This document shows positions 5,086 through 52,488 of a stretch of DNA of 64,000 bases, in pieces. Under the pieces are notes generated by a model. It did not search any database and was not told the origin of the DNA. It worked only from the letters and a program-made list of their open reading frames with translations. The stretch covers positions 24,116-88,115 of the forward strand of contig CAZRSF010000017.1 of NCBI GenBank assembly GCA_964602655.1, given 5' to 3'. The stretch is from an uncultured Candidatus Moduliflexus sp. GTDB lineage: Bacteria; Moduliflexota; Moduliflexia; Moduliflexales; Moduliflexaceae. The translations under genes and the position numbers were made by a program. How positions within the stretch are numbered: the stretch's first letter is position 1; each line of letters begins with the position of its first letter.

Positions 5086-5089
5086 TAAG

Positions 5090-5116
5090 CCTCACAGGTT
5101 TTTAAAACCTGTGAGG
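5090..5116. repeat. REP-like palindrome, family 1 (CCTCACAGGTTTT-TAAA-AACCTGTGAGG); other copies at ~10474-10504 and ~43766-43796
   Basis: A perfect inverted repeat is visible in the sequence. Three near-identical copies occur in the window, all intergenic. Confidence 0.8.
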
Positions 5117-5398
5117 TTTGGAAAAGAAGGGGAAAACTGAACGCCTCACAGCATTAAACGCGGTCTCCGGCTTCAGGATGGCAGATGTGCCTGTATTACG
5201 GTGCGAATCGTTCATGCGTCGCCGCTGCCGAAACAACGGCTCAACATGCGCGACGCCGCGCCGTTCAAGGCCATACCGTCATCCGGTATCCGCCGGAGCG
5301 CAGGGCGTCAATTCTGTCCGGCGCAGCCGGTTGACCGAAACTTGCCCGGCCTTCCAGCCCGCCGCTGAGACGTTCAGCATCCCCTGGTAAAGGAATTT

Positions 5399-5470
5399 GG
5401 GACAGGGCTCGAACCTGTGAACTGAGCGGTATTAGCGCTCTGCTCTAACCAACTGAGCTACCCATGGTGG
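5399..5470 (-). tRNA. tRNA-like gene, probably degenerate (pseudo-tRNA)
   Basis: The reverse complement reads TAGCTCAGTTGGTTAGAGC (D-arm), GAGCG-CTAATAC-CGCTC (anticodon arm), ACAGG-TTCGAGC-CCTGT (T-arm), CCCA. Only 4 bp of acceptor stem can pair, and the anticodon loop gives the non-standard AAT anticodon. This is consistent with a decayed Met/Ile-type tRNA. Coordinates are accurate to about ±3. Confidence 0.4.
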
Positions 5471-5532: not shown

Positions 5533-5810
5533 CGCGTGGCGGAAATGTCCGTTTCGGCATCGGCACGCAAAGACTCAATTCGCAGAATCTCCGCGCCAGC
5601 GAGGCATGTAGAACCCCAACTTTTGACGCCTGAACGTTGGTGTGACACTTCCGATTTAAAGAGATAAAAAAGAATGGAAAATCTGTCAAGCGTTTCTTGA
5701 GAGAAACCACAAACGGTCAGGGCAAACGCATCTCAATAGGTGATTTGAGGGCGTGTTCAGCGCACACCCCGATTCATCGGGGGGTGTTGGAACGACCGGA
5801 CGCCAGCAAG

Positions 5811-5830
5811 CACCGCTTCAGCGGGTTTTT
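5811..5830 (+). terminator. Intrinsic-terminator-like hairpin (CCGCTTCAGCGG + GTTTTT) inside a symmetric hairpin-rich element
   Basis: A GC hairpin followed by a T-tract is visible on the plus strand. The reverse-complement hairpin CCGCTGAAGCGG lies 25 nt downstream. Confidence 0.4.
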
Positions 5831-5980
5831 CGTCGGACGGGACACCGCTGAAGCGGTTCGGGGGGAGACAGGAACGTGTCCCACACCCCGATGAATCGGG
5901 GTGTGGGCTCAACCCATGCCTGTCACGCCTTCACATCAAGCATGTAGATGCGTTTGCCCTGCACAAACGGTCATTATTTA

Positions 5981-6061
5981 CCACGAAACACACGAAAATA
6001 TGGAGAACGTCTTCATCGGATGAATAATTTGATTTTTTCGTGTATTTCGTGTGTTTCGTGG
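5981..6061. repeat. Small element bounded by 17-bp inverted repeats CCACGAAACACACGAAA / TTTCGTGTGTTTCGTGG; a related copy lies at ~8054-8118
   Basis: Perfect terminal inverted repeats flank about 47 bp of AT-rich DNA. A second element with CACGAAAGGCACGAA / TTCGTGCCTTTCGTG arms follows the OsmC gene. Confidence 0.6.
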
Positions 6062-6110
6062 TGTGATAAAAAGCTTGACGGATTCCAGAATGATTTCTAA
6101 ACGATGTTGC

Positions 6111-8776: not shown

Positions 8777-8820
8777 ATATTCCAGCCGCGAAATATACGA
8801 AAATATATCGTTATTCAAGC

Positions 8821-8849
8821 CCTGACAGGGTGTAAAACCCTGTCAGGGC
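8821..8849. repeat. REP-like palindrome, family 5 (CCTGACAGGGT-GTAAA-ACCCTGTCAGGG); a variant lies at ~46570-46601
   Basis: A perfect inverted repeat sits between convergent genes. Confidence 0.7.
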
Positions 8850-8856
8850 TTGTGGT

Positions 8857-10320: not shown

Positions 10321-10684
10321 ACGCTTGCTCCTATTTTTCGAAATATTATGCGCAGGGGCGCGGTCTCCGCGCCCAATAAGACCATCCCAGCCATAAATGG
10401 CCGGTCTGAAAGCTGAAGCAGGCTAAAGCCCGCTGACAGGGCGCTTATGAAGATTAATATCGTGTCGCCCAGAGACCTCACAGGTTTTAAAAACCTGTGA
10501 GGTCTGATTAAAAATCAATGCTCGCATCTATAACAGCCCTGGGCGCGGAGACCGCGCCCCTACGCATTAGGTTCATGTTTTGAATTGTGATACCAGATGA
10601 TGAAAATGATGTCTGCTGTCAAGGTTTTCTCGGAAGGAAAGCGCTGTATTAATTGAAACGACTGTTCTATCAATTGAACCACAG

Positions 10685-10725
10685 CGTAGGGGCGTTCAGT
10701 AGGGGCGTTCAATTGAACGCCCCTA
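10685..10725. repeat. REP-like palindrome, family 4 (GTAGGGGCGTTCA-ATTGAACGCCCCTAC), 1.5 tandem copies; other copies at ~11589-11616, ~31998-32024, ~50058-50083 and ~51291-51338
   Basis: The inverted repeat overlaps the CHAD stop codon. A second copy lies between the CHAD start and the ppk1 stop. The copy at 51291-51338 has 24-bp perfect arms and bridges the mreB and DHH stop codons. Confidence 0.75.
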
Positions 10726-11565
10726 CGCTTGCGACGCCGCCGAAAACTCCGCCCAACACGCCTGAAATTCGCGGAAATAGGTTTCTTTTTCATCGCGGAT
10801 TTTCAGGAACAGCATATCGTAGGCGCGTTCATCCGTCAAGGCGGAAGCGTTGGCGTGAGTCTCATGAAAATCGTTGAGATGTTCTTTCGCCACATCGCCG
10901 TCATGCCAGTGGCCGAGCGCCTGATAAATGCCGCGCAACATGCCGTCTAATTCCGCGCTGTATTCGATTCCGGGAAAACAGCGTGTGGCAATCTCAAGCG
11001 TGTAGCGCGTTTCTTTGGCTAAAATGCGGAGCGGATGCAGAGAACTCTCTTTCAGGTCGCGCTGTTCGTATTCATGCAATTCTTGACGTTGAGCATCGAG
11101 GCGGTCGCGCATGTTTCGAGCGGCGTCCTCTTCTCTCAGCGGCGCAAGCGCTCGAATCAGTCGTTCGCCGTTGCGATGAAGCTCCTCTTCGAGATCGAAA
11201 TGCGCGGCAAACGCGGCAAACGATGCGCCAGCGCGGAGTTCTTTCCGTTTTAGCTCGTTATAATATTCGCTCAGAAAGACGCCCATCTCTTTCGCCCAGG
11301 CGCGGGTGAGTTCCTGCTGCACCTGCGCGTCGCGCAAATCGCCGCTGACTTTGAACAGTTTGCGAATCGGGCGCAGATATTTTTTCGACGGAAACGCCTC
11401 TGGCGCAAGGCTTTCGACTAAACGGAAGCACGCGCGGAGTTGTTTGATGCCGACGCGCATGTCATGCAGCGCATCCGGGTCGCGATAAGCCGCGGCGCGT
11501 TCAAAATTCGCCTGAATGCTTGCGGCGAGCGTCTGATAATATTCGAAAAAACATTGTTGAAACAT
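10723..11565 (-). CDS. CHAD-domain protein (polyphosphate-granule associated)
   Basis: The protein is all-helical with conserved His/Arg-rich CHAD motifs (ALHDMRVGIKQLRACFRL…LRDAQV). It sits next to ppk1. Confidence 0.75.
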   Translation of the reverse strand: MFQQCFFEYYQTLAASIQANFERAAAYRDPDALHDMRVGIKQLRACFRLVESLAPEAFPSKKYLRPIRKLFKVSGDLRDAQVQQELTRAWAKEMGVFLSEYYNELKRKELRAGASFAAFAAHFDLEEELHRNGERLIRALAPLREEDAARNMRDRLDAQRQELHEYEQRDLKESSLHPLRILAKETRYTLEIATRCFPGIEYSAELDGMLRGIYQALGHWHDGDVAKEHLNDFHETHANASALTDERAYDMLFLKIRDEKETYFREFQACWAEFSAASQA

Positions 11566-22712: not shown

Positions 22713-22761
22713 ACCGCCTCGTTCTTCGATGTTTCGTAAATAATACACGCCACAGAGGAAA

Positions 22762-22794
22762 GCTGTCAGACACGCTCAGAACGTGTCTGACAGC
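22762..22794. repeat. REP-like palindrome, family 3 (GCTGTCAGACACG…CGTGTCTGACAGC); other copies at ~24265-24297 and ~30889-30921
   Basis: Perfect 13-14-bp arms are visible in the sequence. All copies are intergenic. Confidence 0.75.
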
Positions 22795-22873
22795 TTATGT
22801 CAAGGCGTAACTTTCTGCCCTCATGCGTTGCTGTCAAGAAAAAACTTGCCCGCAACCCATTCGCGGCAACCGC

Positions 22874-24244: not shown

Positions 24245-24433
24245 AAAAATATTCGTTTGGTAAAAGTTGTCAGACACCTCGAAGGTGTCTGACAACTTGA
24301 TAGAAATAGAGTGATCATGTTGAGGATTGCATCAAAATCAGGCGGATTGAAGTCAAGGGAAAAAACAGCAGCGAATCATTGCTTGACATTCCCGGCGATT
24401 CTGCCGAACATGTCCCTCAAAGGAGGCGTGGCG

Positions 24434-25438: not shown

Positions 25439-25524
25439 GAGAAACCACAGATGACACAGATTTCACAGATAAAGACCGACAAGAAAAAATCTGTGAAATC
25501 TGTGTCATCTGTGGTTAAAAACTT

Positions 25525-30887: not shown

Positions 30888-30930
30888 AAAGCTGTCAGAC
30901 ACGTCTGAAGTGTCTGACAGCTAAGTCGTT

Positions 30931-41931: not shown

Positions 41932-43756
41932 CGCCGATTCGCTGATCGAGTTCGTCAATGTCAGTTTGAACTATGGCGCAACGAAAGCGTTATCGCATCT
42001 CAATCTTGTCATTCGTCGCGCCGAAATTCACGCGATTGTCGGGGAACATGGGGCGGGGAAATCGTCGCTCGGCATGATGTTATGCGGGTTATTGAAACCC
42101 CAGAATGGTCACATCATTATAGAACGGCAACCCTATCGCAGCCTGACGCTCCAATCTGCCCGGAAAATTGGCATTGAAATGGTGCAGCAGCAAACGCTGT
42201 CGCTGAATCCGTATTTTTCGATTGCCGATAATTTCGCGCTCGATAGCCGCCCATTGTATAAACTCTGGCGTAAAAAGCAATCGTTGCAAGCTGCCCGCGA
42301 TTTCCTGGAGCAATGGGGTTTAACGCACATTAACCCCGCTGTTCCGGTCAATACGTTGAACGTGCCGGATCAACTATTTGTTGATATTCTCAAACATCTG
42401 TATCAACGCCCCACCCTGCTGATTCTTGATGAAGCCTTAGAAAAATTGACCACTGCCAATTACAACACCATTGTCGGAATCTTGCAGCGCTTAAAACAGC
42501 AGGGGCGCTCGATCTTGCTGATTACCCACCGCATTGACGATGTGTATCAGTTGGCTGACCGGGTCAGCGTCATCAAACATGGAGAAATTTTGCTCTCCGA
42601 TGAGGTCAAAAACATTGATAAAATCAACCTGATCAAAATGGCCTATACCCAGGTATCAGAGCAACACACGGACAACCTGAATAGGGAATTTTATCAGTTA
42701 TTGAAATACAACGAGGCGATTCTGCGTAACCTGCCGGTAAATTTGATTGTTGCGGATCATGAAAACAATATCAGATTGGTGAATGACTATTGCAAGCAAT
42801 CGTTCGAACTCGATCAGGTTGCTTACATCAACAAACCGCTCGCAGAAGTCGTGACCAGCGCCAATAACGAGGTCGTTGACTTTCTCGATCACGCCCTGTC
42901 CTATCGCGAAGAACACGCCTTTTATCAAGCGCCGATTCGGGTGAATAAGCAAGAAATCATCGGTAATATCAAAACCTTCCCGGTGTATGACGGCAGCCTG
43001 TTCATGGGCACGATGCTGACCATCGAAGATGTGACCGAATACGATCAACTTCAAAAGCAAGTGGTGCTCTCCGAAAAGCTCGCTTCGGTCGGCATGTTAG
43101 CGGCAGGCGTGGCGCATGAAATCAATAATCCGCTGGAAATCATTTACACCTATTTGAGTTTCATGAAATACAAATTTCGCGGGCTGGAACTCCATAAAGC
43201 GCTGAACACGCTGCACGAGCAAATCGCCGATATTTCCAGCATCGTCAGCAATCTTCAGACGTTTTCGGATCGCCATGTCGAGAACGAAGAGGTGGATTTG
43301 AACGATGTGATTCAGAATATGCTGAACCTGTTGAAATACAACGCGAAGTATGAAAATATCGCCATTCATTTCGAACCTGAGAGCGACGACATTCTCATCA
43401 TCACGAACCGCAACGAAATCAAGCAGGTCATTTTGAACTTGCTGAAGAATAGCTTCGAGGTTATGCCATCCGGCGGCGAAATCAGGATTATCACGCGCAT
43501 TTTCGAAGAGAACGGCGGCAAAAACGTGCAGATGACGTTCCAGGATACCGGGCCGGGGATTCATGACAAAAATCCGAACAACGTGTTCTTGCCGTTTTAT
43601 TCGACGAAACACGGCAAAGGGAGCAATAACTTTGGTCTCGGCCTCTCGATCAGTTATAACATCATCAAAAAACACAAAGGGACGATTTCCGTCCAGAATC
43701 TTGAGCAAGCCGGCTGCCAGTTCACCATCACGCTGCCGCAGGCGGCGGCGAATTAG
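41909..43756 (+). CDS. Sensor histidine kinase with an N-terminal degenerate ABC-type ATPase domain, a PAS-like middle and HisKA+HATPase
   Basis: The N-terminal ~230 aa have an ABC Walker A (GEHGAGKSS) and Walker B (LLILDEA) but no LSGGQ signature motif. An H-box (AAGVAHEINNPL) and N/G1/G2 boxes follow. The gene overlaps the regulator gene by 23 nt. Confidence 0.8.
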   Translation: MALPSQNNADSLIEFVNVSLNYGATKALSHLNLVIRRAEIHAIVGEHGAGKSSLGMMLCGLLKPQNGHIIIERQPYRSLTLQSARKIGIEMVQQQTLSLNPYFSIADNFALDSRPLYKLWRKKQSLQAARDFLEQWGLTHINPAVPVNTLNVPDQLFVDILKHLYQRPTLLILDEALEKLTTANYNTIVGILQRLKQQGRSILLITHRIDDVYQLADRVSVIKHGEILLSDEVKNIDKINLIKMAYTQVSEQHTDNLNREFYQLLKYNEAILRNLPVNLIVADHENNIRLVNDYCKQSFELDQVAYINKPLAEVVTSANNEVVDFLDHALSYREEHAFYQAPIRVNKQEIIGNIKTFPVYDGSLFMGTMLTIEDVTEYDQLQKQVVLSEKLASVGMLAAGVAHEINNPLEIIYTYLSFMKYKFRGLELHKALNTLHEQIADISSIVSNLQTFSDRHVENEEVDLNDVIQNMLNLLKYNAKYENIAIHFEPESDDILIITNRNEIKQVILNLLKNSFEVMPSGGEIRIITRIFEENGGKNVQMTFQDTGPGIHDKNPNNVFLPFYSTKHGKGSNNFGLGLSISYNIIKKHKGTISVQNLEQAGCQFTITLPQAAAN

Positions 43757-43808
43757 CGGGATACACACCTCACAGGTTTTAAAAACCTGTGAGGTGTTTT
43801 CGTATTGT

Positions 43809-44558
43809 ATGACATTCATTTCTCACTGGCTTGGGCAGGTCGAATATCAGGCGGCGCTGGCGCAGCAGCACGCGCTGGTTGAGGCACATCGAACGAACGC
43901 TGACATGTCTGACACGCTGCTCCTGTTAGAACATCCGCCGACCTTGACGCTTGGCAGGCGTGCGAACCGTGAGCACTTGCTTGTGGATGAAACGACGTTG
44001 CGGCAGCGTGGATTCGTCGTGTTTGAGGCGGAACGCGGCGGGGACATCACGTATCACGGGCCGGGACAGCTTGTGGGGTATCCGATCCTGAATTTGAAGC
44101 GGCTGTACGGCTCGAACGAGCTTGATCTGCACCGATATGTCAGCGAGATTGAAGAGGTGTTGATATTGGCGTTGGCTGAATTCGGTGTGAAAGGGTGGCG
44201 CTACTCAGGCTATACCGGCGTCTGGGTTGATATTGAAGGTGTTTCGGCGAAAATCGCGGCAATTGGAATCAAGGTCAACAGCAAAGGGATCAGCAGTCAC
44301 GGCTTTGCGCTGAACGTCAATACTGAACTCAGCCATTTTGATCTGATTGTGCCGTGCGGGATTCGTGAACATGGCGTGACCAGCCTGTCGCACTTGCTGC
44401 GACAGCCGGTTACGATTCACGATGTCTTGCCCCATGTACTCTCCGCTTTTCGCCGCGTGCTCGGCTATGAAACCGGGATGTTCTTCCCTTCGACAAGCTC
44501 AGGGAACGATTGCCCAACTTTCCCTGAGCTTGTCGAAGGGAAGAACATCCCCCAGTAA
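43809..44558 (+). CDS. lipB: Lipoyl(octanoyl) transferase
   Basis: LipB motifs are present (…LLLLEHPPTLTLGRRA…ITYHGPGQLVGYPIL…AKIAAIGIKV…). The C-terminal 28 aa are encoded by a 31-bp perfect inverted repeat. Confidence 0.85.
   Translation: MTFISHWLGQVEYQAALAQQHALVEAHRTNADMSDTLLLLEHPPTLTLGRRANREHLLVDETTLRQRGFVVFEAERGGDITYHGPGQLVGYPILNLKRLYGSNELDLHRYVSEIEEVLILALAEFGVKGWRYSGYTGVWVDIEGVSAKIAAIGIKVNSKGISSHGFALNVNTELSHFDLIVPCGIREHGVTSLSHLLRQPVTIHDVLPHVLSAFRRVLGYETGMFFPSTSSGNDCPTFPELVEGKNIPQ
44475..44551. repeat. 31-bp perfect inverted repeat (GGGATGTTCTTCCCTTCGACAAGCTCAGGGA / revcomp) with a 15-nt loop, at the lipB 3' end
   Basis: The repeat is visible in the sequence. Both arms lie inside the annotated lipB C-terminal coding region. 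Confidence 0.7.
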
Positions 44559-44565
44559 TTAGACG

Positions 44566-45960
44566 CTACGACATCCTCAGCGCGTCTTCCCAATGCTCGA
44601 AATACGTCACGTCCAGCGAATCGTCTTCGCCTAAACAGCGCACCGCGCCGCATTCCTGATGATAGACCGAATCATCGAGCAGTGTCTGCAATTTCGGCAG
44701 CGTCCGGGTCGGGATGTCGCAAGCTTTCGTCCATGTTCCTGTATTGATATAGGTAAACGATTCCGCCGACCCATCAATATCGAATGTTTTTGCGGACACT
44801 GGCGTATGCGTATGTCCCATCACCACGTAGCGCGTACCGGGATGATGACGCGCAATCAGCTTTGCGGCCTGCTGGTAATTATCCGTATCGGAAAACAGGC
44901 TGCGGGACTGCGGGCGCGATTCGGTATTCTGCATCATATCGAGCAATTCGTATTCGACGCCGCTGTACCGGGAAAAAATGTGTTCCCATTGCGTTTCGCT
45001 GAACGTTTGCAGCGTCGCGTCGAATTCTCGTTTGAACGAGGGGCTGCTGCGAAGTTCTTGCAGCCGTTCGCGCAGCGCGTTCAGCTTGATGCCGTCCGTA
45101 AAGGCGTCCATATCCATCTGGCGCAGCGTCCGGGTTTTGGGTTTCCATCCGAGCACTGACGATTGCAGGTATTCTTTTAACGGAATACGGAAATTTTTCA
45201 AAAAAATCAGCAATTCTGCGGCGAATTTCGCCGTCACTACCACATCTTCATGCAGCGTGGCCGCTAAGGCGGTTTTCCACATCGGTCGCGCATTATCCAG
45301 CATCGGATAGCGCTCTTCGATGTTGTTGAAAAAATGATCGACAAAGTACGTGCCCCAACAGCTATTCAGGCGGTTGAACGTCACGTTGATCGGCACGTCG
45401 ATCTGGTTGTCGTCGGAATATTGATGCCCATGCGTCACGAACACGCCTTCTTCTTTATACACCATGCCGAATTTGAAATTTTTCGGCGTCGCGCCGATTC
45501 GTTTCATCAGAATGCCTAACACGCGATTCCAGGCCAAATCCACGTCATGGTTGCCGGGAATGATCAGCAATTCATTGCCCGCGATGGCGAGAAATTTCTT
45601 GAGCGCGTCGAATTCGTCCGGATGTCCGGCAATCGCTTTTTGCAGGCGCAGCGCCGATTCCGATTCGGTCGTTCCTAAAAATTTTTGCGGCGGCGCGGAC
45701 ATTGTTCCCAAGATGATTTGCGGAAAATCAATGAAATCGCCATTGATAATCAGGCGGACGCCGCCCAATTTCGACGCCCCGTCCACAAAGGCCACAAAGT
45801 GTTCGGCGGCCTGCTGATCAAAATCTTCTAACCGGTTTTGCTGTCCTTCTCCCAAATGGAGATCGCTGATAATAAATCTCGGTTTTACACTCACGGTCGT
45901 TTCACTCCTTGTGCTCGATGCTGCCGCTCGCCGCCTCAACGGCGGTGCGAGGGGCGGCAT
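44566..45960 (-). CDS. Calcineurin-like metallophosphoesterase
   Basis: Metallophosphoesterase motifs are present (ISDLHLG, GDFID, GNHD). The start may be the GTG at 45894, which has GGAG upstream, rather than the ATG at 45960, which overlaps VanZ. Confidence 0.8.
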   Translation of the reverse strand: MPPLAPPLRRRAAASSTRSETTVSVKPRFIISDLHLGEGQQNRLEDFDQQAAEHFVAFVDGASKLGGVRLIINGDFIDFPQIILGTMSAPPQKFLGTTESESALRLQKAIAGHPDEFDALKKFLAIAGNELLIIPGNHDVDLAWNRVLGILMKRIGATPKNFKFGMVYKEEGVFVTHGHQYSDDNQIDVPINVTFNRLNSCWGTYFVDHFFNNIEERYPMLDNARPMWKTALAATLHEDVVVTAKFAAELLIFLKNFRIPLKEYLQSSVLGWKPKTRTLRQMDMDAFTDGIKLNALRERLQELRSSPSFKREFDATLQTFSETQWEHIFSRYSGVEYELLDMMQNTESRPQSRSLFSDTDNYQQAAKLIARHHPGTRYVVMGHTHTPVSAKTFDIDGSAESFTYINTGTWTKACDIPTRTLPKLQTLLDDSVYHQECGAVRCLGEDDSLDVTYFEHWEDALRMS

Positions 45961-46432: not shown

Positions 46433-46630
46433 AATTAATGATCTCGGAAAAACGTTGCGTACAGCATTATTCACTCATATTGTTCTTCGTATCTCTCGTT
46501 CGTGAAAAGGTCAAGCATTTATTCCAGGAACTTGCGCTGATTATTGATGCGAGCGTTGATTTTTGAGAAGCCCTGTCAGAGTTTAAAACTCTGACAGGGC
46601 TGAAGGCGAGGCGTTGAGGGGAAACGTCAA

Positions 46631-50275: not shown

Positions 50276-51292
50276 ATGTTAAACATGTTCAGATGGTTTT
50301 CGAAAGACCTCGCCATTGATTTAGGGACGGCAAACACACTCGTGTACTTGCGAGGCAAAGGGATTGTGATGAATGAGCCGTCGGTTGTGGCTACTGATAC
50401 CCGTACCGGAAAGATTGTGGCTATCGGACACGAAGCCAAAGCGATGTTAGGGATGACGCCGGATCAGATTATGGCGGTTCGTCCGATGAAAGATGGTGTG
50501 ATTGCCGATTTCAGAATGACAGAAGCGCTCTTGCGCCACTTCATCAAAAAAGTGTGCAGTAACTTTTTGATTCGTCCGCGCGTTGTGGTGGCTGTGCCGT
50601 TCGGGATTACCGAAGTCGAGAAAAAAGCGGTGAAAGATTCGGTCATTCAGGCCGGAGCGAGCGACGTGACCTTGATTTTAGAACCGATGGCCGCCGCATT
50701 GGGCGCTGGGCTGCCGATTCAAGAGCCGTCGGGCAATATGATCGTTGACATCGGCGGCGGCACGACTGAAGTGGCCGTCATTTCACTTTCAGGAATCGTG
50801 TACAGCCGCTCGATTCGGATTGCAGGCGATGAAATGGATGAAGCGATCATTCAGTACATCAAACGGAAGTATAATTTGCTCATTGGCCTCAAGACCGCAG
50901 AAATTATCAAAAAGACGTTAGGATCGGCGTATCCGCTGGATTCTGAAAAAGTGGTCGAGGTGCGCGGACGCGATCTGGCTGGCGGCGTGCCGAATGTGAT
51001 GAAGATTTCCAGTGAAGAAATTCGCGACGCGCTGGCCGAAACGGTGTTTGCGATCATCGAAGCGATTCGCGTGACGTTGGAACGCACGCCGCCGGAATTG
51101 TCCGCTGACATCATTGATCGCGGCATCATTCTAACGGGCGGGAGTTCCTTGCTGAAAAATTTAGATTTTAAGATTAAAGAAGAAACCGGCCTGCCGGTTG
51201 CGCTTGCAGACGATCCACTGACGACAGTTGCCATCGGAACCGGCAAAGCGATGATGGATCCGGAATTGCTGAAAAAACTCGCGATCTCATAA
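50276..51292 (+). CDS. mreB: Rod-shape-determining actin homologue MreB
   Basis: The actin-fold motifs are present ([10 protein letters not shown]…, …[15 protein letters not shown]…). Confidence 0.9.
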
Positions 51293-51336
51293 ACAGAATC
51301 GTCGGGGCGTTCAATTGAACGCCCCGACGATTCTGT

Positions 51337-52488
51337 TTATTCCGACGAAGAATTCGGCGCGGCGACGCCGATTTTATTGAAGATTTTTTGTTTGACTTGC
51401 AAATCGAACATTTTCCATTTTAAATCCTCGTAGTCATTGCCATAAGTTCCGGCCAAAAAACCGACCGGAATGGCAAATCCACCGGCTTCCTGTTTCCCTC
51501 CGCCGAAATATTCGCCATTCTCGCTCTTGCCGAAGGCTTCTTTGATGAACGCATCCGCGTCAATCGTCAGTTTTGACGTGCGGAACGACCCGCTGAGCAG
51601 TTCTTCTTGATTATCGTTGACGACGATGCCATAGACAATGACGGTATGCACATTTTCTTCCGTCAGCAGAAAATCCGCCGCCTGCGCAATCGCGTCGCGC
51701 TCTTCCTGACGAAGATAGCCGATGCCGGAAATACTGTAATTGTCTTTGATCACGCGATTCGCCAAGGCTTTTTCAATGACGTCCATCACTTTTTTCGACC
51801 GCGCCTGCATCACGATTTCGCTCAGCAGATTCGGATTATAGTAATTGCTCAAATAGGCCGCCGCCAGCAGATCGTGCTCGTTCGCCCGGATAAAATCGTT
51901 CGTATCGCTGCGAATGCCATGTATTAAGGCGGTTGCGCATTTGACATGGAACGAGTCGGTCTTATCCAATTCGATCAGTCCTTGCTGCAAGTAGCTGGTG
52001 TAAATCGTCGCCGTCGCGCCGATTTTGCGAATATCATGAAATTCCGGCGACAGGCCGCCAGAACGTTCGTGGTGATCAACAACAATAATCGGCTTGATAT
52101 TGTGCGCTTCAAGTTTTTTGGTCAGCGCGGTGGTTTTCCCCTGGTTATCCACAAACACGCTGCCCTGGTAGCGCGAAAAATCTATGACGTTGTTTTCGGA
52201 ATGACGAATCAACTCGACATTCAATAATTTGACTAACGCAATATTCTGCTGATGGCTGATGCGTCCGGCATAGACGATGTCCACCTCGATGCCGTAATTC
52301 AAACAAATCAGTTTATGCGTCAGCGCGGAGGCAATCGCATCGGGGTCTGGAAAATCCTGAATCGCCACAATATGCGTTTCTCCGCGATGCGCCTCCAAGA
52401 CATCGCGCAGTTTTTCGACTTTCTGGCTGCCGTGAAGCGCCGCAGTCGTCTGTTTGACGTTTTCTTTCACGTCTTCTGTCTCTGACAT
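51337..52488 (-). CDS. DHH/DHHA1-family phosphoesterase (NrnA-like)
   Basis: DHH motifs are present (…VVDHHER…) with a DHHA1 C-terminal domain. The ATG at 52488 is preceded by AGGGG. Confidence 0.75.
   Translation of the reverse strand: MSETEDVKENVKQTTAALHGSQKVEKLRDVLEAHRGETHIVAIQDFPDPDAIASALTHKLICLNYGIEVDIVYAGRISHQQNIALVKLLNVELIRHSENNVIDFSRYQGSVFVDNQGKTTALTKKLEAHNIKPIIVVDHHERSGGLSPEFHDIRKIGATATIYTSYLQQGLIELDKTDSFHVKCATALIHGIRSDTNDFIRANEHDLLAAAYLSNYYNPNLLSEIVMQARSKKVMDVIEKALANRVIKDNYSISGIGYLRQEERDAIAQAADFLLTEENVHTVIVYGIVVNDNQEELLSGSFRTSKLTIDADAFIKEAFGKSENGEYFGGGKQEAGGFAIPVGFLAGTYGNDYEDLKWKMFDLQVKQKIFNKIGVAAPNSSSE

Follow-up and report, generated by a model that had tools for sequence, protein, structure and literature searches.

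A perfect hairpin at the 3′ end of lipB in a Candidatus Moduliflexus genome is probably a REP/REPIN-like repeat dimer that replaced an ancestral junction hairpin

The lipB (octanoyltransferase) gene of an uncultured Candidatus Moduliflexus sp. ends in a 77-bp perfect hairpin, which we analyzed within a 64-kb stretch of DNA (64,000 nucleotides (nt), assembly GCA_964602655.1, contig CAZRSF010000017.1, positions 24,116 to 88,115; hereafter the window). We propose, with a probability of roughly 0.6, that the hairpin is a dimer of a repeat resembling repetitive extragenic palindromes (REPs) and REPINs, that it replaced the ancestral hairpin between lipB and a convergent metallophosphoesterase gene together with the lipB stop codon, and that it probably serves as the shared 3′-end hairpin of both transcripts. 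The initial annotation had suggested a repeat insertion at this site, and this idea holds in that the hairpin arms share their core with a dispersed repeat family, copies of which we found in at least 120 viral contigs and in no fewer than 119 stretches of bacterial genomes.

The lipB hairpin

A repeat search placed two 32-nt arms, which are 100% complementary, at 44475-44506 and 44520-44551, on either side of a 13-nt spacer. The repeat had previously been located correctly but was described with 31-nt arms and a 15-nt gap, as one extra A-T pair was overlooked. The features of the region are as follows.

43809-44558, + strand: lipB open reading frame (ORF), 249 residues and a TAA stop.
44472-44555, + strand: lineage-specific LipB tail, T222...Q249 (TGMFFPSTSSGNDCPTFPELVEGKNIPQ), the translated palindrome.
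44475-44506, + strand: 5′ arm, consisting of an outer, non-module part (44475-44483) followed by the repeat module in the "F" orientation.
44485-44508, + strand: repeat module, TCCC-TTCGACAAGCTC-AGGGA plus a conserved 3′ tag (A-C-G) that extends into the loop; its 17-mer core is at 44487-44503.
44507-44519, + strand: loop, 13 nt (CGATTGCCCAACT).
44520-44551, + strand: 3′ arm, the exact reverse complement of the 5′ arm, with the module in the "R" orientation and its core at 44523-44539 on the − strand.
44556-44558, + strand: present lipB stop, TAA, 4 nt past the hairpin.
44566-45960, − strand: convergent calcineurin-like metallophosphoesterase ORF (442 residues in relatives), with its stop codon at 44566-44568.

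Within the window the 32-mer arm occurs at just these two sites, even with up to 3 mismatches allowed, and it occurred in 0 of 100 dinucleotide-preserving shuffles. The predicted RNA folds are highly stable on both strands (−68.3 kcal/mol, z −11.0, for the + strand and −71.6 kcal/mol, z −10.7, for the − strand), as is the predicted fold of the hairpin as single-stranded DNA (−39.7 kcal/mol, z −14). BLAST searches with the hairpin returned 6 weak partial matches among plasmids, 0 of them on an annotated repeat feature, and no match among phage genomes.

The LipB tail is a translated palindrome

The palindrome opens exactly at codon 223 (44475) and codes for residues 223-248. Pfam domain PF21948 (LplA-B_cat) covers LipB residues 13-214, and the Thermus LipB structure 2qht aligns to residues 1-220 and ends three residues later, so that conserved domain and structure homology is over at about residue 220 (nt ~44468). 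The hairpin starts two codons past the end of the conserved domain, and not inside a conserved enzyme gene as had been described.

The homologue search returned one protein with the tail, P0001, which is identical to the window LipB. The next best homologues, from the Ca. Moduliflexus/KSB3 lineage and including Candidatus Moduliflexus flocculans, are 81-85% identical over 89% of the query and terminate at residue ~221-228. When LipB was aligned to its homologues, the tail was absent from all 11; the closest end in ...FGYD or ...FGYENNNE directly before the stop, and the others carry short unrelated tails. As judged from these alignments, LipB residues 222-249 are found in this genome alone. 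The suspicion that the last ~28 residues are lineage-specific is thus borne out by Pfam, the structure alignment and the 11 homologues, which together place them outside the LipB fold; the contrary outcome, a counterpart of the tail in orthologues, was seen in no homologue. The mirror-image ORF on the opposite strand (44465-44653, −) indeed encodes the same motifs, GMFFPSTSSG...FPELVEGKNIP, as had been noticed, because any translated perfect palindrome must repeat them.

Could the palindrome code for a functional C-terminal extension of LipB, or act as a translation-coupled attenuator of lipB expression? No stop interrupts the frame within the 77 bp, and the first one comes 4 nt after them. 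Yet a frame of 27 codons stays open by chance in about 1/4 of cases, (61/64)^27, the tail is in no homologue, even at 85% identity, and LipB tails and stops of relatives likewise lie inside the resident hairpin (L005, L250), which points to an accident of position. We consider such a role quite improbable, and the attenuator, which had been put forward at first, gained no support. Because an open frame is a ~1-in-4 event and the lipB ends of relatives also run into hairpins, the tail is best read from the sequence as a tolerated by-product of the palindrome and not as a conserved part of the enzyme. For annotation this calls for caution: the LipB C-terminus as annotated is a translated repeat, not enzyme sequence, and repeat-derived tails and extensions are also present in the annotations of relatives (the tail of P0009, the N-terminal extension of P0002).

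The junction hairpin differs among relatives

Gene order is kept in seven related contigs, in which an ABC/histidine-kinase protein, lipB, the converging metallophosphoesterase gene and VanZ follow one another. DNA homology between the window and these relatives breaks off at TATGA(A/G)A(A/C)C, the conserved end of lipB, and restarts at the phosphoesterase stop codon. The whole interval between these two points differs from all relatives, and the ancestral lipB stop is gone; the earlier proposal that the native C-terminus had been replaced is supported by this DNA alignment. The hairpin also stands, as proposed, at a junction shared with the convergent metallophosphoesterase gene, the stop codon of which is 14 nt from the hairpin and the C-terminus of which is the same as in relatives.

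These data also bear on whether the palindrome is real. Perfect arms would be expected of a fold-back chimera created during assembly or amplification, but the flanks on both sides are collinear with the seven independent related contigs, a typical read is longer than the element, similar module dimers are present in independent genomes, including complete isolate genomes, and equally long perfect hairpins are found at the same junction in three independent assemblies (L001-L003). An artefact is therefore very improbable, the least probable of the explanations that we considered.

A hairpin lies just 3′ of lipB in every contig of the relatives examined (eight by count), and these hairpins comprise at least five unrelated sequences, as listed below.

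L001-L003: 31-nt perfect arms, 5-nt loop.
L004 (M. flocculans): a degenerate homologue of the L001-type hairpin.
L005/L006: 29-nt arms, 97% complementary, with the lipB TAG stop within the 5′ arm.
L007: 46-nt arms, 80% complementary, interrupted by a 134-nt insert that has its own hairpin.
L250: hairpin of the CACGGAGAC type, which overlaps the lipB end.
L251: 15-nt arms.
L252 (1886-1918): 16-nt arms of the CTGTCAGACAC type, a type present three or more times in the window.

Judged by sequence, every relative examined has a hairpin at this junction, the sequence of which is replaced repeatedly. As the junction hairpin differs from lineage to lineage among these relatives, the window palindrome would be one more replacement, which incidentally removed the lipB stop. 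In the L001-L006 group 98.4% of cells in the stem are paired and 4 of the 7 variable pairs have changed on both sides, among them a pair that is A-U in one contig and C-G in another, the LipB proteins of the two contigs being identical. With 4 distinct sequences, this signal of compensatory maintenance is suggestive rather than conclusive. The junction offers a tractable case of turnover in terminator-like structures, in which a long hairpin is kept and its sequence is swapped via dispersed palindrome families.

Two short matches connect the window hairpin to those of relatives. The outermost stem, GGGATG/CATCCC (44475-44480/44546-44551), is also the outer part of the otherwise unrelated junction hairpin of L007 (3170-3175/3378-3383), and GGGAACGA, at the inner end of the window 5′ arm (44501-44508), recurs in the L004 junction hairpin. 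The matches are too short to show whether they are left over from an ancestral stem or arose by chance.

The arm core belongs to a dispersed repeat family

The module TTCCC-TTCGACAAGCTC-AGGGAA folds on its own into a 6-bp stem with an 11-nt loop, the kind of short palindrome that characterizes REPs and REPINs. Across the family, which can be written in degenerate form as CTTCGACNNGCTCAG, modules have a 4-6-bp stem around a conserved loop of 11 nt (TCGACAAGCTC), with x-C-G as their 3′ tag. The 17-mer core, CCTTCGACAAGCTCAGG, is what recurs in the IMG/VR viral contigs (at least 120), compared to 3 for the reversed and 0 for the shuffled control 17-mer, and it is the 21-mer TCCCTTCGACAAGCTCAGGGA that recurs in the stretches of species-representative genomes (at least 119). 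Among the 21-mer matches listed, the phyla are Actinomycetota, Bacteroidota, Chloroflexota, Spirochaetota, Planctomycetota, the candidate phyla radiation (CPR), Desulfobacterota, Pseudomonadota, Campylobacterota and others. Isolate hosts include Microbacteriaceae, Chryseobacterium and Uliginosibacterium, complete genomes include Pelolinea submarina and Desulfonema magnum, and metagenome-assembled genomes include Saprospiraceae, Treponema, Fibrobacter, Uhrbacteria, Planctomycetota, Thiomargarita, Methylotenera, Sulfurovum and Calditrichota. "Bacterium UASB14" (L137) contains a double copy with the same architecture as in the window; we take this organism here to be M. flocculans, because the DF8204xx accession series of the M. 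flocculans assembly runs on into its own.

The module occurs singly, often capping a longer variable stem, as two inverted modules or in tandem arrays. The window copy is an inverted pair, as in REPINs, and other inverted dimers of the family are found in L137, L142, L152, L235, L248, L249 and L007. The first pair flanking the module is Watson-Crick (C-G or T-A) in 78% of copies versus 43% expected. Of the two flanks, the 3′ one is conserved (146 of 158 copies have C at +4 and 104 have G at +5) and the 5′ one is not; the tails of viral copies read GCGAACGG or ATGAGCGG. Copies are mostly intergenic. With respect to the gene upstream, one module orientation is slightly preferred (61 to 35, from a crude ORF map), a bias too weak to tell an RNA-level from a DNA-level role. 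Genomes with one copy hold further independent copies at a density of ~1 per 33-50 kb, compared to 1 per 870 kb in shuffled sequence.

Tandem arrays were observed in L140 (100-220), L163 (1575-1650), L238 (3468-3750), L243 (14-150) and L074 (4019-4081), with periods of ~23, 37, 46-57 and 104 nt; their hosts are Microbacteriaceae genomes, the genome locus L243 and a viral contig, and in some arrays AAG and AGG loop variants alternate.

An Rfam scan at gathering thresholds gave no match for 16 family loci and, for the whole window, a tRNA only. In a permissive scan the hairpin hit generic microRNA-precursor models, which match any long hairpin and were set aside. Readings of the module as an attC site, a CRISPR repeat, a DNA uptake sequence, a tRNA-like structure or a ribozyme were also dismissed, as none fits the consensus features of these elements. 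Nothing relevant turned up in the literature searched, whether for the DNA core, for its peptide translations or by concept, and neither the surveys of REPs nor that of HUH enzymes contain the motif. It is conceivable, though we hold this only tentatively, that the module represents an undescribed element of bacterial phyla and phage contigs with the consensus R-Y-CCT-TCGACAAGCTC-AGG-R-Y followed by a tail such as GAACGG. If so, a near-identical loop and one-sided tag, conserved from Actinomycetota to CPR, Campylobacterota and viral contigs, would suggest a widespread trans-acting recognition factor. Candidates would be an HUH/Y1-type single-strand DNA enzyme that copies the module between genomes, or a factor that binds or processes RNA. 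In that case the lipB hairpin would be one trace left by such a system, and the fast swaps at the junction would reflect a pool of interchangeable mobile hairpin cassettes. The family is arguably the most interesting by-product of this analysis, combining a near-invariant 17-21-mer with a REP-like organisation that is without the REP hallmarks, and should it be truly undescribed, it raises the question of what recognises the module and how the module spreads.

Possible origin of the window copy

A relative provides a view of the family close to lipB. In L007, a canonical dimer with its tags facing outward lies in the kinase-lipB spacer, inside a nested palindrome of ~190 nt (2300-2495); this palindrome has outer arms of 22 nt (GGGATCGCCGGCATCCTGCCGG), inside these AAGTTAAGAA arms, and the family dimer at its centre. 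The presence of a dimer beside lipB indicates that the family occupies variable sites in this lineage. The module tail reads GAACGATTG in L007 and AACGATTG in the + strand copy of the window, where it forms the start of the loop. The ACGATT that is common to both tails is found in the tail of 1 of 427 other family copies. The two window copies differ in their tags, the + strand copy having the canonical A-C-G and the − strand copy an A at +4, where the family usually has C. Finally, the window arms remain perfect for 9-10 nt past the module, while other dimers pair over the module only.

The rare tail shared with L007, the tag on one copy only and the extension of perfect pairing past the module lead us to infer a fold-back origin for the perfect 32-bp arms, whereby a single + strand module would have been placed after lipB and its 3′ partner would have been generated by fold-back (template-switch) copying of the module and its upstream flank. 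Alternatively, the palindrome could be a dimer whose second tag has mutated. The module itself would have arrived by non-homologous insertion, presumably catalyzed by a putative trans-acting enzyme.

Predicted function and competing explanations

In RNA, the hairpin would form a 3′-end structure shared by the two converging transcripts, where it would pause or terminate polymerase leaving the phosphoesterase gene, limit antisense read-through and block 3′ exonucleases on both transcripts. Such a 3′-end function is suggested by the hairpins in all relatives examined, the compensatory changes, the spacer-filling hairpins of this genome (see below) and the roles proposed for REPs. On the − strand, the hairpin follows the phosphoesterase stop codon at a terminator-like distance and is itself followed by GGUUUCAU. 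The location after a stop codon applies to the phosphoesterase gene, whereas the lipB ORF runs through the hairpin.

Several observations weigh against a REP/REPIN-like dimer with a 3′-end role. On the lipB strand the hairpin is within a translated ORF, so that ribosomes must melt it. This strand has no U-tract after the hairpin (CCAGUAAUU; + strand tail CCAGUAAUUAG), the − strand tail GGUUUCAUAG has three U only, and a consensus terminator scan did not call the hairpin. The GTAG or CGTC tag of described REPs is missing from the family. A second copy of the full 32-nt arm was found nowhere that we searched, there is a single module locus within the window, and a metagenome scan for the dimer type of the window yielded 2 matches, both imperfect outside the core. 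When ORFs within ±4 kb of 119 family loci were clustered, generic families only were recovered, with no transposase or recurrent gene among them.

Some of these findings count as well against a miniature inverted-repeat transposable element (MITE), that is, a non-autonomous transposon bounded by terminal inverted repeats, the insertion of which duplicated its target site. A short, palindromic element at a variable site and membership in a multi-copy family are compatible with a MITE. On the two sides of the element (...GAAACC, element, CCAGTA...), though, the sequences ...TATGAAACC and CCAGTAATT... have no direct repeat in common beyond a trivial CC, and hence no sign of a target-site duplication. 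Nor does the repeated unit behave as a defined 77-bp element: it is a module of ~21-25 nt, of which single copies and tandem arrays are also seen, and the window, over which the search for repeat copies was run, holds no other full-length copy. Taken together with the imperfect metagenome dimers and the lack of a related transposase near the family loci, these results do not uphold the MITE label proposed initially, and we view it as improbable.

The most serious competitor, though still an unlikely one, is the in-place evolution of an ordinary bidirectional intrinsic terminator, with an incidental likeness to the repeat family and no mobile ancestry. Its position between convergent genes and immediately downstream of the phosphoesterase stop, the hairpin at this junction in each relative examined and the compensatory changes that kept the hairpin of one relative are all what an in-place terminator would predict. 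It would not, by contrast, explain why a 17-21-nt core is identical to a family so abundant in viral contigs and genomes when controls give 0-3 matches, nor why the family's asymmetric tag and a lineage-specific tail are common to the window and L007. The missing U-tract on the + strand and a stem and loop larger than those of usual terminators also speak against it, as do copies at non-orthologous sites that are empty in sister genomes, which have already been seen in part (L007, L137). A terminator, as suggested at first, would in its canonical intrinsic form likewise be at odds with the absence of a U-tract on the lipB strand. The terminator or stabiliser role that we propose for the repeat dimer draws on its position and on the hairpin turnover in relatives.

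Other hairpins and features of the window

Other perfect hairpins in the window occupy short intergenic spacers. One, at 25443-25516, has 28-nt arms (AACCACAGATGACACAGATTTCACAGAT) and an 18-nt loop and nearly fills the 86-nt spacer of two same-strand genes. A 17-mer of its arm, ATCTGTGTCATCTGTGG, was found in 17 viral contigs versus 0-3 for control 17-mers, and by this measure the hairpin seems to belong to another widely dispersed hairpin family. A perfect 52-bp loopless palindrome at 51289-51340 (ATAAACAGAATCGTCGGGGCGTTCAA / TTGAACGCCCCGACGATTCTGTTTAT) lies between converging mreB and DHH/DHHA1 phosphoesterase genes and overlaps both ORF ends and stops by ~3 nt, as at lipB, but without a long tail. 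The hairpin at 10683-10729 (AGCGTAGGGGCGTTCA ... TGAACGCCCCTACGCT) has GTAG beside its stem, as in classical GTAG-tagged REPs, and has GGGGCGTTCA/TGAACGCCCC in common with the 51289 palindrome.

Directly upstream of lipB is the terminator-like hairpin of the histidine-kinase gene:

43765-43797, + strand: 16-bp perfect stem, then a T-run.

This CCTCACAGGTTTT/AAAACCTGTGAGG hairpin has three copies in the window, the others being at 5087-5119 and 10473-10505. In L005 (2413-2500), the called LipB, P0002 (256 residues), begins with an N-terminal extension, ...NTSQVFKTCEVY, which differs by one residue from the peptide of the CCTCACAGGTTTT/AAAACCTGTGAGG hairpin in window ORF 43563-44558 (SQVLKTCEV). 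Because it is the same peptide as the translated hairpin, the extension is probably an annotation artefact. Additional ~16-bp perfect hairpins, built on CTGTCAGAC(A/G), are located at gene ends (22760-22796, 24264-24298, 30890-30922, 46569-46601 and 8816-8852), and the lipB junction hairpin of L252 is a member of this family.

Two further regions of the window stand out. Between 58000 and 64000 the G+C content drops from ~50% to 36-38%, and the products of two large − strand ORFs are a HerA-like helicase (DUF87, HerA_C) and a protein that has two GHKL/HATPase domains; horizontal acquisition of an island, or a defence island, may account for this region. A − strand tRNA gene (5398-5464) is followed by composite inverted repeats at 5755-6062, with 32-nt arms 95 nt apart and ACCACGAAACACACGAAA-type arms, and this tRNA-adjacent cluster may be an integration or repeat hot spot.

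Comparison with known systems

REP elements, BIMEs and REPINs are repetitive extragenic palindromes that are mobilised by RAYT transposases and have been described in E. coli, Pseudomonas and Stenotrophomonas (PMC3116915, PMC2817692, PMC3733652). One of these papers reports that REPs are proposed to act in transcription termination and mRNA stabilisation, and that the described superfamilies are tagged with GTAG or CGTC at one end (PMC3733652). Like REPs and REPINs, the window family consists of short imperfect palindromes that are dispersed and mostly intergenic, that occur as singles, as inverted dimers forming long hairpins and in clusters, that have a conserved unpaired tag at one end and that are found at gene 3′ ends. 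There are also differences. The family tag, x-C-G(G), is 3′ of the module, while the GTAG or CGTC of REPs is 5′; its conserved part is the 11-nt loop, not the stem; and no RAYT-like gene was seen within ±4 kb of 119 family loci. The same 17-21-mer is found in many phyla and in viral contigs, whereas inheritance of REP-RAYT systems is described as largely vertical (10.1101/2022.05.22.493013). Moreover, the window copy, unlike a REPIN, is a tags-inward dimer with perfect arms that reach past the module.

Rho-independent terminators resemble the window hairpin in being strong stem-loops, here right after the phosphoesterase stop, between converging genes and kept in the relatives examined. They differ in having a G+C-rich stem followed by a U-run; after the window hairpin, the lipB strand lacks a U-tract and the opposite strand has three U only. 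The window hairpin, moreover, has a 32-bp stem and a 13-nt loop and on the lipB strand is inside the ORF.

In Neisseria, DNA uptake sequences, dRS3 repeats and Correia elements often occur as inverted pairs, form terminator-like hairpins downstream of genes and can alter gene ends. These repeats are confined to one genus and have known roles or partners, such as uptake and phage integration. The window family shares with them the short repeats in inverted pairs at gene ends, but the sequences are unrelated to the window module, and the window family is found in many phyla.

The closest counterpart in Rfam is RF02901 (AaHKsRNA41, Aggregatibacter actinomycetemcomitans small RNA (sRNA) 41), the only model that matches both the window and the L007 copies, though weakly: the scores of 18.2 bits (window) and 16.6 bits (L007) are below the gathering threshold of 97, and only the hairpin part of the 187-nt model is matched. 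sRNA 41 stems from an RNA-seq catalogue, the main text of which is silent on sRNA 41 and gives no function for it (PMC5909427). The RF02901 consensus nonetheless holds an inverted pair, CUGAgCUUGcCGAAG ... UUCGgCAAGcUCAg, that is the same module with one base changed. This likeness in sequence suggests that one member of the family is transcribed in Aggregatibacter actinomycetemcomitans.

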